Shown: in pieces, positions 4,417 through 58,335 of the stretch
Layout of the letters: the number at the start of each line of letters is the position of its first letter
Numbering within the stretch: the stretch's first letter is position 1
The notes under the pieces: generated by a model
The model's input: the letters and a program-made list of their open reading frames with translations, nothing else
Told to the model about the DNA's origin: nothing
The model's database searches: none
Position numbers and translations under genes: made by a program
Assembly: GCA_048213135.1 (NCBI GenBank)
Contig: PS015009.1
Location: 1,116,001-1,180,000, forward strand
Length of the DNA stretch: 64,000 nucleotides
Source of the DNA: Reclinomonas americana ATCC 50394
Lineage: Eukaryota
Reading direction: 5' to 3'

Positions 4417-5784
4417 TTAGAAAAGGCAGTTTTTAAGCATGGAAAAGAAACTCTGGTCTTGATTTTTTAAATCAACAAAAACAGAAACTGGATTTTTTTG
4501 CCTTAGTATGTTTTCCTTTTGACGATTTGATTTTTCGCTTGTATATAACCAAGCTAAAGAGCCAATCGCAAGAGGAAGAAATGAAATGTCATTTTTAATA
4601 ATTGGGATCCCAATGTTAGCAACAAGCCATTGCTTCCTTGACAATTCTGCTTGTTTCTTAATGTCTTTCCATTCTGCTTCTGCTTTTTTTAATTCCTCAA
4701 GAAAAGCCTCGTTCAAATCCTTAATTTTTGAATCGGTTAAATTTTCAATTTTAATACCATTTAACTCTGAAAATACTTTCTTTAACTGTTGGCGTACCCC
4801 TGAAAGTCTATCCTCCTTTCTTAATTCTAAAGCGAAGCCAGTATCAACGCTATTCAAGAAATTTAAAGGAATTTGGGAATAAATCCTGTTAGTCTTAACC
4901 CAAAAATCATCAACTCCATACTCGTTAATTTGTTGCCATCTTGCTTCAGAAGGAGTATAGATATTTCCATCAGTTATTTCAGAAACCAATATCATTGATT
5001 CTAAAGGTCCGCCACCTTTTGTTGGAGCTACCATTTTTTCATTCAGCGGAATATTTAATTTTGTGTAAAGTGGGTTAACATTTTTATGTCCCTTAATAAT
5101 TACCTCTGAAAATTCTTCTGCGTCCCTTTCGGTAAATTTAGGTTGTGTCATTTCCAAAAGTGAGGTAATTATATATTCTTTGCTTCTACCTTTGTAAATA
5201 AGAGAAAACTGTTCTGCTAAATTTTCCATTATATCATTACGGCTAAGATTGAAGTATTTTTCAGTATCTAATGCAGAAACTCTTTTTTTAACTCGGAGGT
5301 CTAACTCATCTCTAAGCCTTAAATCATATTCGTAAGGATTTATAATAAGCTTTACGATTCCGGCCTTAACCCATTTTTGAATAACTATATAAAAATATAA
5401 TGAATCAAGAAAATCTGGAAGCCAATATTTAGGATTTTTTCTAGGGTCAAATTTTTGATTTGTTACAGATGGGTTTTGTAGTGGATGAAAAACAATGATT
5501 TTTTCAGAATATAAAGAAAATCGTACAACTTCATCTATTATCTTCCTTGCTTTTATGTCACCATAGTGAATACTTGAAAATGTTGATTTGCACTTTTCTA
5601 GTTCAGAAACATAGTTGTGGTTTCTTGGGAATATTTCGGCAAATGTCTTATATGTCTTTTTTATCTTTTCTAATGTTACATTCTTTGAAATATCATCCCA
5701 TGTTTTTGACTTCTTAATATTAAACTGTTGATTAAGGAAATCGAAAAAGTAATCATTCTGTATATCAAAGTAGTCTTTTTGCAT
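4417..5784 (-). CDS. Hypothetical protein in AT-rich islet
   Basis: 455-aa ORF with AT-rich codons; C-terminal coiled coil followed by a hydrophobic segment (WLVANIGIP...FLPLAIGSLAWLY). Confidence 0.75.
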   Translation of the reverse strand: MQKDYFDIQNDYFFDFLNQQFNIKKSKTWDDISKNVTLEKIKKTYKTFAEIFPRNHNYVSELEKCKSTFSSIHYGDIKARKIIDEVVRFSLYSEKIIVFHPLQNPSVTNQKFDPRKNPKYWLPDFLDSLYFYIVIQKWVKAGIVKLIINPYEYDLRLRDELDLRVKKRVSALDTEKYFNLSRNDIMENLAEQFSLIYKGRSKEYIITSLLEMTQPKFTERDAEEFSEVIIKGHKNVNPLYTKLNIPLNEKMVAPTKGGGPLESMILVSEITDGNIYTPSEARWQQINEYGVDDFWVKTNRIYSQIPLNFLNSVDTGFALELRKEDRLSGVRQQLKKVFSELNGIKIENLTDSKIKDLNEAFLEELKKAEAEWKDIKKQAELSRKQWLVANIGIPIIKNDISFLPLAIGSLAWLYTSEKSNRQKENILRQKNPVSVFVDLKNQDQSFFSMLKNCLF

Positions 5785-5966
5785 TTGTCTGGTATTACTG
5801 TAAGATTATCGGCAATATTAGAGGCTTTATGAAGCTGGAGAATCTTCCAACTTTTCTTCATAATACAAATTTCTCTTTTCAGAAAAAACAAATATTTAAA
5901 CCTCGAATTCAGAAATAGAAAATCAGATTTAAATCGTGTTTGGAAATATTATCTAACAAAGAAAAA

Positions 5967-6206
5967 TTATTTGTCCGCTAATTTACTAAGGAGCCAAACA
6001 GCCAAAATAAAACCGCCAATTGTTAGCCCAGCTTTCACCACATCATCCGAGTTTTTTTCAGACAGAAATTTATCATATTGCTCTTTAGTAATATTTCCGT
6101 TAGTATAAAGAATAGTCATGTATTCTTTTTTCTCTTCTGAAGTGGCTCTATTTGTAGAGATTAGATTTTTTAACTGCAATAAACGGTTGTATTGAGTATT
6201 ATTCAT
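5967..6206 (-). CDS. Small protein with C-terminal transmembrane helix
   Basis: 79 aa ending GLTIGGFILAVWLLSKLADK; start overlaps the upstream stop (ATGA). Confidence 0.65.
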   Translation of the reverse strand: MNNTQYNRLLQLKNLISTNRATSEEKKEYMTILYTNGNITKEQYDKFLSEKNSDDVVKAGLTIGGFILAVWLLSKLADK

Positions 6207-6475
6207 GACTTTGTCCTTTTTGAATTTACAGCATCAAACAATTTAGGAATTAAAACATCAATTTGCTTGCCAATCTGATCGATAACCTGCTGTTGTAGGT
6301 CATCTCGGCTTTTTAATTCCTGCTGTTTAATTTTCAAATCAGTTATTTCATCTTTTAAATCTTCGATTTTATCACGAAGGTACTCCTTCATATTATGGCG
6401 TGAGCTAAGAAATGCTACTATAGCAGAAGCTATTATTCCAAAAATATAAATAAGGTCTTTCAATTCAAATTTCAT
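6203..6475 (-). CDS. Small protein with N-terminal TM helix and coiled coil
   Basis: 90 aa; LIYIFGIIASAIVAFL then heptad-like IEDLKDEITDLKIKQQEL. Confidence 0.65.
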   Translation of the reverse strand: MKFELKDLIYIFGIIASAIVAFLSSRHNMKEYLRDKIEDLKDEITDLKIKQQELKSRDDLQQQVIDQIGKQIDVLIPKLFDAVNSKRTKS

Positions 6476-6945: not shown

Positions 6946-7143
6946 CTACCCCGTCGCCACCAGCAACTCCCTCACATTCACTTTCAATACTTCGGCGATT
7001 TTAAAAAGAGTTTCAATAGAAGGCTGCTGATCATTGGTACACCAGCGGGAGACAGTTTGCGGAGATACGGCCAGGGCTTCGGCCAGTTTATTATTGGTCC
7101 ATTTCTTTTCTACAAGCACTATTTTGATACGGTTAAGGTCCAT
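6946..7143 (-). CDS. XRE-family helix-turn-helix transcriptional regulator
   Basis: 65 aa: NRIKIVLVEK...LAEALAVSPQTVSRWCTNDQQPSIETLFKIAEVL, typical Bacteroidota HTH_3. Confidence 0.9.
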   Translation of the reverse strand: MDLNRIKIVLVEKKWTNNKLAEALAVSPQTVSRWCTNDQQPSIETLFKIAEVLKVNVRELLVATG

Positions 7144-7147
7144 ACTT

Positions 7148-7155
7148 CAAATATA
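7148..7155 (-). promoter_or_regulatory. Bacteroidota sigma-A -7 element for the XRE gene
   Basis: TATATTTG on the minus strand matches TAnnTTTG, 4 nt before the ATG. Confidence 0.6.
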
Positions 7156-7286
7156 AACCCTCCCTATGAGAGCCATTTTTAAGCATTTTTATTATATAAT
7201 ATCAAATTTTTGATTGTATATCATGTATTTTTATCGTATAATATCATAAATTGCGTGTATTAAATCAGTAAATAAATTTTTTCCGT

Positions 7287-7583
7287 ATGAAAATGACTTC
7301 CTTATCTCCCTCCCTCGCCATCCTCCCCCAATCCCTGCAAAACCTCTACCACAACTTCCAGCAACAACCTTCCCCGCATACCGCCCGGAAGCTGCTTAAA
7401 GAATATTTCGCCTGCTTTGGCCGCAACACAGTTAACCGTGAGCTGTGGCGTATGCTCGCCGGCGCCCTCAGCGATCCTGAAATGCCAGGGTTAAAGAAAG
7501 GTGTTCAGCGGCACAACCTGCTGTTCTTTTACGAGTTCACCCTCATTTTTATGGAAGCGGCGGAGTTGCTGGCGAAGGAATGA
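7287..7583 (+). CDS. Hypothetical protein divergent from the XRE regulator
   Basis: 98-aa ORF after an AT-rich leader; LWRMLAGALS...RHNLLFFYEF resembles small Chitinophagaceae accessory proteins. Confidence 0.6.
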   Translation: MKMTSLSPSLAILPQSLQNLYHNFQQQPSPHTARKLLKEYFACFGRNTVNRELWRMLAGALSDPEMPGLKKGVQRHNLLFFYEFTLIFMEAAELLAKE

Positions 7584-7588
7584 TGAAA

Positions 7589-7903
7589 GATTTCACCGCA
7601 AAGAACAAAAGAACGCAGAGGTTACGCAAAGGTTTTCTCCGTGCATCTCTGTGAAAACACGCTGTGACCTCTGTGAAAATTTTACCGCAAAGAACGAGAG
7701 AACGCAGAGGCATCGCAAAGAATTCTCTCCATGTCTCTCCGTAAAAAAAATCATCACCGCGGTCTCGTGCCGAAGACCCCGGCGGAACAATAGAGGTAAC
7801 GCTGAGGTTACGGACTTTCTCTGTGAAGCTCTGTGAAAACACTCCGTGTATCTCCGTGAAAAATCATCACCGGGGTCTCGTGCAAAAGACCCCGGCGGAA
7901 CAA
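7589..7903. repeat. Composite REP/MITE-like element, copy 1
   Basis: Sub-units TTT(C)ACCGCAAAGAAC..GAACGCAGAG...CTCTGTGAAAA and hairpins such as CCGGGGTCT-N8-AGACCCCGG (7870-7895); colinear with 9959-10270. Confidence 0.85.
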
Positions 7904-7981
7904 CAGTGTGTAAATTCAAAGATTGTTCGCAACAAAAAAGAGCGGCTCATCGCCGCCCTTTTCACTTTACCATTAAAACTC

Positions 7982-8695
7982 TTACATTTTCAACGCCTGC
8001 AAAGCTTTGTACTCGGCCGACTGGTTGCCGTACTGGCTGCGGGTGTAAGCCTTAATACGTACGCAGCGGTCTTGCAGGTCGGCGTACAGCGCCTGCCGTT
8101 CGTTGCGGCGGGCACGCATTTGCTCCAGCCGGGCAGCCACGGCGTTGTTGGCCTCGGTTAGTTTTACCACAAAAGCCTGCAGTGCCACCAGCGTTATACC
8201 CTTGGTACTGCTGGCATAGTCGCCAAAACTGCCCAGGGTGGTTACCAAATCGCTGAAATACTGCGTTTGCGAGCCAAAGCTTTTCTCACTCTGGCTTACG
8301 GTTTTTTCAGCCTCCGGTTGGGTGGGGTCGGCGGGTAGCTTTACCAGTTTGCTTTTGCGCATTACTTTAATAATGGCGCCCACCTGCTGCGCTTCGTGGC
8401 TGGTACGGCCATACTGGGCATCTACCGCTCCGCGAATGAGGGTCAGCATTTTGGTTACTGATCCTGTTTCGCCGGTAAACAACTGCTGCCGCAGCGATAC
8501 CTCACGGCTGTACTTCGCCTGCCTGTCGGTTTCGGCTTCATTACCGGCGGCAATGATTTGAATAAGCACCTGTAACTCCGCCAGCGTTTCCTTAGTGCGG
8601 GGCGGGGCATAGCCCTCCCAGGTTTTTATAAACTCTGTTGCATCCTGCAACTTGCGCAATCTTGCGCCAAACGATGTTTCCGCTTTGGAACTCAT
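7982..8695 (-). CDS. All-helical hypothetical protein with two-fold internal repeat
   Basis: Likely start MSSKAETSFG at 8695 (track start 8737); both halves share E.SFG...Y...TL..LQ...N.A...RQ.L...QYG..S.E. Confidence 0.8.
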   Translation of the reverse strand: MSSKAETSFGARLRKLQDATEFIKTWEGYAPPRTKETLAELQVLIQIIAAGNEAETDRQAKYSREVSLRQQLFTGETGSVTKMLTLIRGAVDAQYGRTSHEAQQVGAIIKVMRKSKLVKLPADPTQPEAEKTVSQSEKSFGSQTQYFSDLVTTLGSFGDYASSTKGITLVALQAFVVKLTEANNAVAARLEQMRARRNERQALYADLQDRCVRIKAYTRSQYGNQSAEYKALQALKM

Positions 8696-8865
8696 AACAG
8701 ATACGAATTTTTGGTCTTTCGAGCGATATTGCTCCACCCAAAGACGAAAAACACCTGTATCCGGTTCCCTCTCTTGTATCTGCGTACATTTACTTGCCGT
8801 TGAAATAACATTTTGTAAACAGCATAAAAAAATGGGTGAGTGATCATAACAACTACAACGGCGAA

Positions 8866-9117
8866 AAGTTACTGGAACACTTTAATAAGTTACTTAGAAT
8901 ATCTAAGAAGATACTGTAACACCCTTACAAGTTGCTGAAGCCATTTTACAAGTTACCGGGTCATTCAAAGAAGTTACTGAATACATCTTACAGGTTACTG
9001 GAACATTCTAATAAGTTACTGAGGCTATCTAAGAAGCTACTGGAACACTCTTACATGTTACCGGGTAATCCTTACAAATTGCTGAAGCTGCCTGGCAAGT
9101 TCCTGCGTCACCCTTAC
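8866..9117. repeat. Tandem array of 12 x 21-bp units
   Basis: Exact 21-bp period; consensus AAGTTACTG-N6-YCTWAN. Confidence 0.9.
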
Positions 9118-9249
9118 GCCTCCTCCAAACATATCGCCTCATTCCTTCCCTTCTTCACTCTTTCATTCTTTCATTAACATTTTTATACCCTCTGCTACGG
9201 ATATACGCTGTTCCTTTTTCCCGCTACCTTACCATTCTAAATTTATACC

Positions 9250-9942
9250 ATGCCCTCCCTCTATCAAAAGATCCTCGTACTTGCCATGGGCCCCACCAAC
9301 GATGAAGGCATCGTTCGCGGCGCGGCAAAAAGCAACGGCCCCATATTCAAATCTCACGTTGAAAAAGCCACCAAAGGCCAGGTAAAGCTGGAGCTCTTCT
9401 ACCCGGAATACCTTAACAACGATTTTCATACCGACGACTTTATGGATTTTGGCGGCACCCTCCGGTACATCGCCAAATACAACAAAACTTTCGATGATAT
9501 ACTGGTGCATAACTGCGGCATAAAGCCTTACCAGTACGATTATATTCTTAGGGTGTATAAGCATCCGCCCAAACTGGTATCGGGTTTTTACGCCAATACC
9601 TGGATGTGGTACAACCAATACCTGGGCACACCGCACCTGAAAAAAGGTTACACCTCGCTGCTGGCCAATCCTACTATCCCATCAGGCGTTATAGCACCAC
9701 CCATGTGGGAAACCATGGTGCATGAGTATTGCCACCAGCTGGAGCACCGGTTCAACGATGCGGGTGTTAAATATTTCGTTAACTCCGACAGGAAGAACGA
9801 ACTGCAGAGTAATCCATTCTTCACCTCCACTTCCAACATCGACTTTTATTACAAGATCATGGCCAACCTTGAGTTTCCTTACAACGGCATACAAAGTGTG
9901 CCTTATCACAAACTCAATGGCATTGCCGGCGTGTGGAAGTAG
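9250..9942 (+). CDS. Putative zincin metallopeptidase
   Basis: 230 aa containing MVHEYCHQLE (HExxH); no signal peptide evident. Confidence 0.65.
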   Translation: MPSLYQKILVLAMGPTNDEGIVRGAAKSNGPIFKSHVEKATKGQVKLELFYPEYLNNDFHTDDFMDFGGTLRYIAKYNKTFDDILVHNCGIKPYQYDYILRVYKHPPKLVSGFYANTWMWYNQYLGTPHLKKGYTSLLANPTIPSGVIAPPMWETMVHEYCHQLEHRFNDAGVKYFVNSDRKNELQSNPFFTSTSNIDFYYKIMANLEFPYNGIQSVPYHKLNGIAGVWK

Positions 9943-9958
9943 GAATAGAAAACAGCGA

Positions 9959-10270
9959 TTTTTCACCGCAAAGAACAGGAGAACGCAGAGTTAACGCAAA
10001 GATTTTCTCAATGAATCTCTGTGAAAACGCTCTGTGCCATCTGTGAAAATTTTACCGAAAAGAACGAGAGAGCGCAGAGGCAACGCAAAGGATTCTCTCC
10101 ATGTCTCTCCGTAAAAAATCATCACCGGGGTCTCGTGCCGAAGACCCCGGCGGAACATCAGAAAGAACGCTGAGGTTACGGACTTTCTCTGTGAACCTCT
10201 GTGAAAACACTCCGTGTATCTTCGTGAAAAATACTCACCCGGGTCCCGTTCCGGAGGCCCGGCGAAAAAC
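9959..10270. repeat. Composite REP/MITE-like element, copy 2 (direct orientation)
   Basis: Same sub-unit order as 7589-7903 with scattered substitutions. Confidence 0.85.
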
Positions 10271-10319
10271 AAAATATAAACATCGCTGTTTCGTCTGCCG
10301 TGTTAACTTTTGCGGAACG

Positions 10320-10676
10320 TTACTCTATCACTAATGGCTCTTCAGACCCTATATTTTTCCAATACCGGGCAGTGAGTATACCTGTATAGTACCGCAGAGA
10401 AAAAATAAAATGTATCACCAGCCATAAGAGGAAAATGGGTTGAAAAGAAGGCGTCCACACTTCGGCATCCCTTATTACCGCACCTACTTTTAACATGGCA
10501 ACAGCCGGGCTGTACGACAGCAAACCAGCTAACCCCAGCAGGATAGTAAGCCCCAGCAGCAGTACGCCAATTTTGTGGTTTTTCAGGAATGCTAAACTGG
10601 TGATCAGTAACAGGGCAAGGCCTGCCATATGTTTATACATCAGCAGGCAATCGCCACTGAACCTGGCCCACAGCAA
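10320..10676 (-). CDS. Hypothetical membrane protein (start uncertain)
   Basis: Three hydrophobic segments; the frame stays open upstream of the TTG without an ATG. Confidence 0.55.
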   Translation of the reverse strand: MLWARFSGDCLLMYKHMAGLALLLITSLAFLKNHKIGVLLLGLTILLGLAGLLSYSPAVAMLKVGAVIRDAEVWTPSFQPIFLLWLVIHFIFSLRYYTGILTARYWKNIGSEEPLVIE

Positions 10677-57360: not shown

Positions 57361-58335
57361 ATGACTGAAACAAATTTTCCAACGGCTAACACTCCTAATA
57401 ATGAACCGCGTAAGGCGACTTATAAAAACGCGGTGATTGGCGTTTTGGCCGCAGCACTGGTTGGTGTATCCGGTTACCTGGTGTATGCTAAAAACGATTC
57501 CGCTAAAACCATACAGCAGCAGGAAACCACCATTGCGAAAGTAAGTGACGAGAAAAGCGATATCCAAACCAGTTTTGACGCATCGCTTGCCAGGCTGGAT
57601 TCTATGTCAACCGCTAATACCGGTTTACAAAATCAGCTGGCTGAAAAGAACAGTGAGATCACAAAAACAAAAGCTGAGATCAGGAGCATCCTGAATAAAA
57701 AGAACGCGACTGCAGCTGAACTGTCAAGGGCAAAAACACTCATCGCTTCACTGAACAGCAAGATCGGTGAAATGGAGCAGGAAGTAGCCCGCCTGACACA
57801 GGAAAATCAAACACTCACCAACGATAAAGTGGTGCTGACTCAGGAAAAAGAAAAACTGACACAGGACCTGACCACCACTACAACGGTTAAACAGGAGCTG
57901 GAAAAGAAAGTGGATGTAGCTTCTACACTGAACGCTTCGAACATCTCCATCACGCCTATCAACATCAAGAGCGGCGGTAAAGAAAAAGTTTCTACTACAG
58001 CTAAGCGTGTAGATAAACTGGTGGTTCGTTTTGATGTGAGCAACCGTATCGTTCAGCCAGGTTCAACTGATGTATATGTATTGGTGATTGGCCCCGACGG
58101 CCAGCCGATGAGCACTGCAACCGGTTCTACTTTCACCACACGTGAAGAAGGCGAAAAAGCATTCACTGCTAAAGTGCCCGTAGACCTGGAAACAGCGAAA
58201 ACCAAAAGCGTTGAGTTTGCTTTCGCACCGGGTACCAACTTCGTTAAGGGTAACTACAAAATCCAGATCTACCAGAATGGATTCCTGATCGGTGAAGGTG
58301 TTCGTGAACTGAAGAAAGGCGGATTATTCAGCTAA
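57361..58335 (+). CDS. Membrane-anchored coiled-coil protein with C-terminal beta domain
   Basis: N-terminal TM, long heptad region, GNYKIQIYQNG end. Confidence 0.8.
   Translation: MTETNFPTANTPNNEPRKATYKNAVIGVLAAALVGVSGYLVYAKNDSAKTIQQQETTIAKVSDEKSDIQTSFDASLARLDSMSTANTGLQNQLAEKNSEITKTKAEIRSILNKKNATAAELSRAKTLIASLNSKIGEMEQEVARLTQENQTLTNDKVVLTQEKEKLTQDLTTTTTVKQELEKKVDVASTLNASNISITPINIKSGGKEKVSTTAKRVDKLVVRFDVSNRIVQPGSTDVYVLVIGPDGQPMSTATGSTFTTREEGEKAFTAKVPVDLETAKTKSVEFAFAPGTNFVKGNYKIQIYQNGFLIGEGVRELKKGGLFS

Follow-up and report, generated by a model that had tools for sequence, protein, structure and literature searches.

Tandem 21-bp arrays beside genes for an unnamed family of two-fold helical proteins in Bacteroidota

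Introduction

In plasmid iterons, direct repeats spaced by about two turns of the helix adjoin the gene for a Rep initiator. The sopC centromere of the F plasmid, which with SopB belongs to type Ia partition, has a period of 43 bp according to the available part of its description (PMC3177203). TIGR arrays, as far as the accessible sections describe them, have a period of 18/36 and serve TIGR-Tas systems (PMC12045711). Minisatellite MITEs of Porphyromonas gingivalis comprise the BrickBuilt elements with 23-nt repeats (PMC4596501) and MITEPgRS/464 with 41-nt repeats (PMC2575886); in the available portions of both reports each appears as a single sequence that has terminal inverted repeats and is present in many copies, and no partner gene is described there. 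The accessible part of a preprint gives array periods of 60–79, 18, 5, 10, 8 and 7 nt, and not 21 or 41–42 nt; some of the 66 out-of-band clusters in its section 2.3 are left undescribed, which may bear on novelty (bioRxiv 10.64898/2026.10.21.760802).

Here, a gene with a tandem array of 21-bp units beside it is described on a bacterial contig of 2.33 Mb, which lies inside an assembly of 108 Mb and whose gene content and homologues point to a Chitinophagaceae-like member of Bacteroidota as the host. Gene and array form a real, widespread and apparently undescribed two-part system in Bacteroidota; the literature searched, with most subscription papers outside it, held no description of the protein family or the arrays. 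By analogy, the pair would work like a centromere or iteron platform, yet it seems to belong with neither iterons, partition systems, CRISPR, TIGR nor MITEs.

As in iterons, the repeats are spaced by about two turns and adjoin the gene whose product is the presumed binder. Unlike an iteron replicon, the protein has no Rep family match, none of 72,556 plasmid records matches a query from either clade of its family (clade A, which holds the gene studied, or clade B), and up to 16 family matches per genome lie at dispersed chromosomal sites. Like sopC, about 12 phased direct repeats adjoin the gene, and the 42-bp paired unit is near the 43 bp given for sopC in the available text; unlike sopC and parABS, there is no ParA ATPase or conserved neighbour and no ParB or HTH family match, and unlike sopC the arrays are chromosomal and multi-copy, differ in sequence between loci and, at a 21-bp period, have no dyad. 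TIGR-Tas, in the accessible sections of its description (PMC12045711), shares a short-period dual-unit array of locus-specific sequence, placed up- or downstream of one small gene, and a two-fold partner. Unlike TIGR-Tas, however, the present family has no Nop domain (absent among the Pfam matches of 150 + 25 members), its period is 21/42, its units, in place of distinct spacers, are often nearly the same, promoters and terminators give no sign that the array is transcribed separately, and phage records contain no family match; a viral scan gave no clade A match and a single clade B match, on an IMG/VR contig. The earlier note on this DNA had stated that the array is not CRISPR, and this holds: the period is 21, the 6–12 variable bases recur where CRISPR-Cas has unique spacers and cas genes, and there are no conserved neighbours and no Rfam CRISPR match. 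Finally, the arrays resemble BrickBuilt and MITEPgRS, as far as the available portions of those reports go, in being intergenic, spacer-free tandem repeats of Bacteroidota, with 41 nt as the MITEPgRS period, but they differ in that the sequence is specific to each locus and the partner family is fixed; with the core of the array studied here, the assembly has just one further array, a diverged one.

The array and the gene in the window

The array lies at 8866–9117 (no strand assigned) of the window, by which the whole analysed stretch of 64 kb is meant, and is its sole clear array at a 21-bp period. Its 252 bp consist of 12 ungapped units of 21 bp, in which positions 1–9 (AAGTTACTG) are conserved in 9–12 of the 12 units, positions 10–15 are variable and positions 16–21 are semi-conserved, just as the earlier note had read it: an exact period, a kept block, six variable bases and a semi-conserved tail, without indels. 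At lags 21/42/63 the array agrees with itself at a mean identity of 0.63, whereas 2000 shuffles give 0.26 ± 0.02 (maximum 0.34). Units 7–9 each match units 1–3 at 18 of 21 bases and the best lag is 126, which bears out the likeness and the higher-order duplication, of 126 bp, that had been proposed. Stops had been claimed for the K-L-L frame and others, and they occur in all six frames (one in the K-L-L frame, 4–10 in the rest). It had also been said that no listed open reading frame crosses the array, and indeed an 81-aa frame with a TTG start (8932–9177) spans only units 4–12. Among the matches listed from related strains (contigs from four sequencing runs), there are three array substitutions and no array indel. 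The one RNA run screened contained 0.05 of the sequence words. Borderline 21-bp periodicity (score 0.45) occurs near window position 57741. An inverted orientation of the window array relative to the arrays of relatives was considered and dropped, as neither orientation gives a strong score (1.6 vs −1.5).

The partner gene, at 7982–8695 on the minus strand, encodes a basic protein of 237 aa from an unnamed Bacteroidota family (clade A). Between its ATG at 8695 and the array there is a gap of 170 bp (8696–8865, no strand), the distance originally noted.

The partner protein and its relatives

The 237-aa protein has no specific match in Pfam, NCBIfam, PHROGs, PADLOC or PDB sequences, and among 25 family members tested PADLOC gives one weak match. 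Its profile, however, matches 2035 clusters at 50% identity (E ≤ 0.001), so that the family is large and often multi-copy, and it is nameless and without function in the libraries searched. Two homologous helical halves had been claimed for the protein. Although single-sequence BLAST sees no half-to-half similarity, profile alignment of the halves reaches 99.7% (E 1e-26) over 102 columns, and an AlphaFold2 model (pLDDT 94) is all-helical with a short-long-short helix pattern that occurs twice, which confirms the claim. In the model, the protein is predicted to be an elongated bundle with a pseudo-two-fold axis; its helices of 37 and 54 residues would measure about 55 and 80 Å at 1.5 Å per residue, near the 71 Å of 21 bp. 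Foldseek with the predicted structure gives no match at E ≤ 0.001 in PDB or BFVD. VIA-align finds generic bundles only (best Z 11), and such matches to a model indicate neither a new nor a known fold. Net charge is +9, which is also the family median; conserved basic residues include R69/R200, R113 and K215, and basic residues stand at matching places in both halves. The family has no match to helix-turn-helix or ribbon-helix-helix families.

DUF6261 (PF19775), which we take to be a probable relative of the partner family, is a weak neighbour in the Atlas (0.81). The window protein has no match to PF19775 (cut-off 27 bits), 2/25 clade B members match it weakly (best E 2.5e-4, below the Pfam cut-off), and the profile–profile probability between the two families is 9–22%. 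The DUF6261 model has the same doubled short-long-short helix pattern, equal length and shared generic fold matches. Arrays of 21/42 or 41 bp lie upstream in 16 of 28 DUF6261 loci, a set of which a single genome supplies 15, and arrays of 83 bp in two more; palindromes are often present in the 41-bp units. DUF6261 is thus a probable distant relative of the partner family, not a member.

Linkage of array and gene

A first GTDB scan found a 21/42-bp array upstream in 35/42 loci, two of the seven misses having fewer than 100 bases of upstream DNA, and a metagenome scan gave two loci, both with the array upstream. The homologue set comprises 92 distinct proteins; 17 fragments or frameshifted copies were left out, leaving 75 intact ones, the window included. 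A 21/42-bp array lies within about 1.1 kb on either side of 71/75 of these; in two of the four others the DNA on the expected side is missing, and a few of the 71 rest on weak calls of four units. The 21-bp periodicity of divergent sequence that the earlier note had proposed to look for beside homologous genes is therefore present rather than absent. In clade A, the array is upstream in 43/45 and downstream in none of the 45, and in clade B it is downstream in 26/30 and upstream in three; the side tracks the deepest split of the protein tree (support 99). The unit sequence varies from locus to locus and the period is constant. As a control, far flanks totalling 167 kb gave a single array, of 42-bp period, and none of 21 bp. 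One relative has, in 800 kb, four arrays of 21-bp period, two beside family genes, one built on a heptamer and one solo.

The contig of the window also carries three clade B genes. Two have downstream arrays of unrelated sequence, and the third sits in tandem after one of these two arrays; the own-contig paralogue L004 is without a downstream array of its own. Two frameshifted clade A copies in a Saprospiraceae genome (L072 and L076) have 41-bp instead of 21-bp arrays. These were considered as decay, which was rejected, since 41 bp is a regular period class.

Array and gene move jointly, because homology in several related pairs in different contexts spans from the outer array edge to about the gene stop; the two together are thus the unit that moves. 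Among neighbouring genes, no family is common to more than 4/92 loci, and neither a transposase nor a ParA ATPase was found as a conserved neighbour. Such movement raises the question whether the array is itself the product or working end of mobility, with the protein or a helper adding or recombining 21-bp units on copying. Consistent with this, the array forms one boundary of the moving unit, genomes hold many dispersed paralogues, array copy number changes by whole units (for example, an 84-bp indel), and MITEPgRS has 41-nt tandem repeats in the available part of its report (PMC2575886). However, the partner family matches no nuclease, recombinase or polymerase in family or fold, no transposase or similar neighbour is conserved, and terminal inverted repeats are missing around the module in the window (no inverted pair of at least 14 nt around the array in 7200–10400), which makes this origin quite improbable.

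Coding potential of the arrays

As 21 is a multiple of 3, the array could also be a decayed or fast-evolving gene for a heptad-repeat peptide. Coding signals were sought in 68 distinct arrays, each with 6 or more units, a score of 0.5 or higher and a position within 700 bp, after removal of two near-duplicates. Some frame is open in 49/68 arrays, and an open frame with ATG is found in 23/68. Against a column-permutation null, both strands have too few stops (33 vs 55 and 41 vs 74), but the early reading of this deficit as a coding signal was rejected because it came from a poor null: once the consensus is kept, stops are at chance (34 vs 35 ± 5 and 49 vs 45 ± 3). Likewise, the best-of-six synonymous fraction is slightly over its null (0.412 vs 0.395 ± 0.009), but the most open frame does not differ from the others, with a fraction of 0.22 in each case. 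Variability has periods of 21 (z 7.8) and 10.5 (z 4.7) and lacks a period of 3 (z −2.3). In two close pairs, the genes have more synonymous than nonsynonymous changes (28:16 and 26:9), whereas the arrays have more nonsynonymous changes in all six frames. The open frame is not the same among arrays with a common DNA motif. Moreover, periods of 41 and 83 occur, at the two broken clade A copies and at DUF6261 loci, and therefore the constraint is about 10.3–10.5 bp per turn and not a reading frame. The arrays are non-coding: the heptad frame under purifying selection that was looked for was not found among them, there being no 3-nt signal and a neutral synonymous fraction, and a peptide gene is largely refuted and very improbable.

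DNA or RNA

The −7 promoter box of Bacteroidota was the motif used for the promoter scan. It occurs at −110 to −30 in 14/37 upstream-array loci, where 1.9 are expected; 12 of these boxes lie between array and gene and two in the near end of the array. In downstream-array loci, a terminator-like hairpin stands between the stop and the array in 11/24, as against 12/96 shuffles, one of the 11 being far out at the array edge. Although these counts include related loci and about half of the loci are without these signals, arrays tend to be placed where the mRNA does not reach, on the far side of the promoter box or of the terminator. In the window, a terminator-like hairpin at 7935–7965 (listed on the plus strand, no strand assigned) follows directly past the gene stop, with A/T runs on both sides. 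The 170-bp gap has no exact −7 box in this copy, and many clade A relatives have one in the corresponding gap. The only exact box in the window, at 9126–9133 on the minus strand, points through the array toward the gene and would place the array within a leader transcript; it may be a chance match, and such boxes are not enriched family-wide.

A separately transcribed array, whose RNA the protein binds or cuts into 21/42-nt units in the manner of TIGR with a pseudo-dimeric partner, would draw on several of the features of the arrays. Lags 42/84/126 exceed lags 21/63/105 in 53 arrays, and therefore units tend to come in pairs, an effect that is small in the window array. A degenerate motif common to the arrays is strand-polarised (5.4 vs 2.9 bits), with 38/44 upstream arrays in one orientation. 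Arrays of 6–30 units stand upstream or downstream, as TIGR arrays do in the accessible sections of PMC12045711; the 12-nt variable parts of a solo array are diverse, and the window −7 box points into the array. On the other hand, −7 boxes pointing into arrays are not enriched (3 vs 1.7 and 5 vs 3.3 of 41; 0/22), and terminators are near chance after upstream arrays (2 vs 2.0 and 7 vs 4.7 of 41) and modestly raised after downstream ones (4 vs 2.3 and 6 vs 2.0 of 22, the latter on one strand). Many arrays have near-identical units and hence are no guide libraries, array folding energies are at the null, nothing in Rfam comes near a gathering score, and the protein has no Nop domain match. Processed RNA units are thus unlikely. 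Of the two functions first proposed, a phased DNA platform or processed RNA, the former is favoured by folding, promoter and terminator placement and linkage, although its iteron- or centromere-like form finds no sign of a replicon or partition system in conserved neighbours or in plasmid and phage matches.

Alternatively, the phased DNA element might be read in trans by a host factor, such as a nucleoid protein or regulator, or act through DNA shape, so as to control or insulate a gene whose own product is not the binder. Solo arrays, the lack of a recognised DNA-binding fold in the partner protein and the 10.5-bp component in variability are in keeping with this, but paralogues on the same contig have unrelated arrays, which fits locus-specific binders better, and arrays behind a terminator are poorly placed for gene control; a host reader is accordingly rather unlikely. 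One solo array (G000:C1:2252560-2252801; L138:4571-4802, minus strand) has a 9-bp core identical to that of the window array and is, assembly-wide, the only other array with this core, in diverged form. It has about 12 units with more diverse 12-nt variable parts, lies 1.1 Mb from the window array, downstream of ftsZ and amid REP-like repeats, and the surrounding 9.5 kb yielded neither a family gene nor a trace of one; the array is either a leftover or a site that works in trans. Another solo array, of 13 units of 21 bp, stands between two large secreted-protein genes (L140:3799-4072) and has an open 98-aa heptad frame on one strand.

Proposed mechanism and significance

The reading preferred here, at about an even chance, is that the array is a DNA platform phased to the helix, onto which the adjacent protein loads. 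Gene and array would be a self-contained two-part module in which the array works as double-stranded DNA, with sites spaced by two turns of the helix, in many cases grouped in pairs of four turns, and hence all on one helix face. The adjacent basic, rod-shaped, pseudo-symmetric protein would be the most likely binder and would load cooperatively, a single copy to each 21 bp or a pair to each 42 bp. The complex would probably hold and titrate its own protein, or build a centromere-like nucleoprotein patch at the locus; it may be more than a promoter operator because the array precedes the promoter in clade A and follows the terminator in clade B.

This platform is favoured by linkage (71/75 against one array in 167 kb of far flank) with a side set by clade; by variability periods of 21 and 10.5 but not 3, paired lags and the 41/83 periods; by promoter and terminator placement, the lack of RNA folding excess and joint movement; and by charge, conserved basic residues and the tracking of protein identity by array similarity (rho 0.34), although such co-divergence is expected from linkage alone. 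It is weakened by the lack of a helix-turn-helix or ribbon-helix-helix match, by fold matches to generic bundles only, and by dyad scores at the null for 21- and 42-bp units, since a pseudo-two-fold binder might well require the dyad symmetry of which the 21-bp arrays have no excess. Solo arrays without a gene, L004 without its own downstream array, promoter and terminator counts that include kin and leave about half of the loci without signals, and the sole exact −7 box of the window, which puts the array in a leader transcript, also weaken it.

A bolder and rather improbable extension is that a large superfamily of rod-shaped helical proteins, the partner family together with DUF6261, reads DNA by a new mode, each paralogue having a private co-evolving array. 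Acting as a DNA antitoxin or decoy, the array would keep the protein inactive and release it on a DNA cut or competition, for example by phage, and solo arrays would be extra sinks in trans. A version of such private pairing with RNA units is also conceivable. A fixed helical period with free sequence and a clade-specific side would imply a co-evolving protein–nucleic acid code. If each protein reads only its own array, the family would supply a natural set of orthogonal DNA-binding pairs, whose protein fold differs from that of known regulators. DUF6261 would also gain its first testable function, and many of the heptad 'hypothetical proteins' annotated in Bacteroidota would turn out to be shadows of arrays.

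Other features of the window and the contig

REP-like direct repeats of about 300 bp with G+C-rich hairpins flank the two-gene cassette on both sides. The left cluster (7591–7892, plus strand) is about 90% identical to the right one (9961–10260, plus strand), and they are context outside the family module. Pieces of these clusters give 21 matches along the contig, and related strains differ at the clusters. The second gene of the cassette (9250–9942, plus strand) is divergent and encodes 230 aa with a zinc-protease-like HExxH motif; it has no Pfam or NCBIfam match, is not a neighbour in other loci and is probably incidental to the module.

A gene of XRE-type HTH and a divergent 98-aa orphan gene occur at window 6946–7583 and at L002, L003 and L137. 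They are found repeatedly beside family genes on this contig and hardly in other genomes. L137 is also the site of the one clade B match in the viral scan: its gene is 98% identical to that of L002 and lies on a virus-labelled contig near a DNA methyltransferase-like gene, possibly at a prophage edge. Just downstream of the module in the window, at 4417–6475, an A+T-rich island (32% G+C) carries a 455-aa orphan and two small membrane-type genes, and it may be a defence island.
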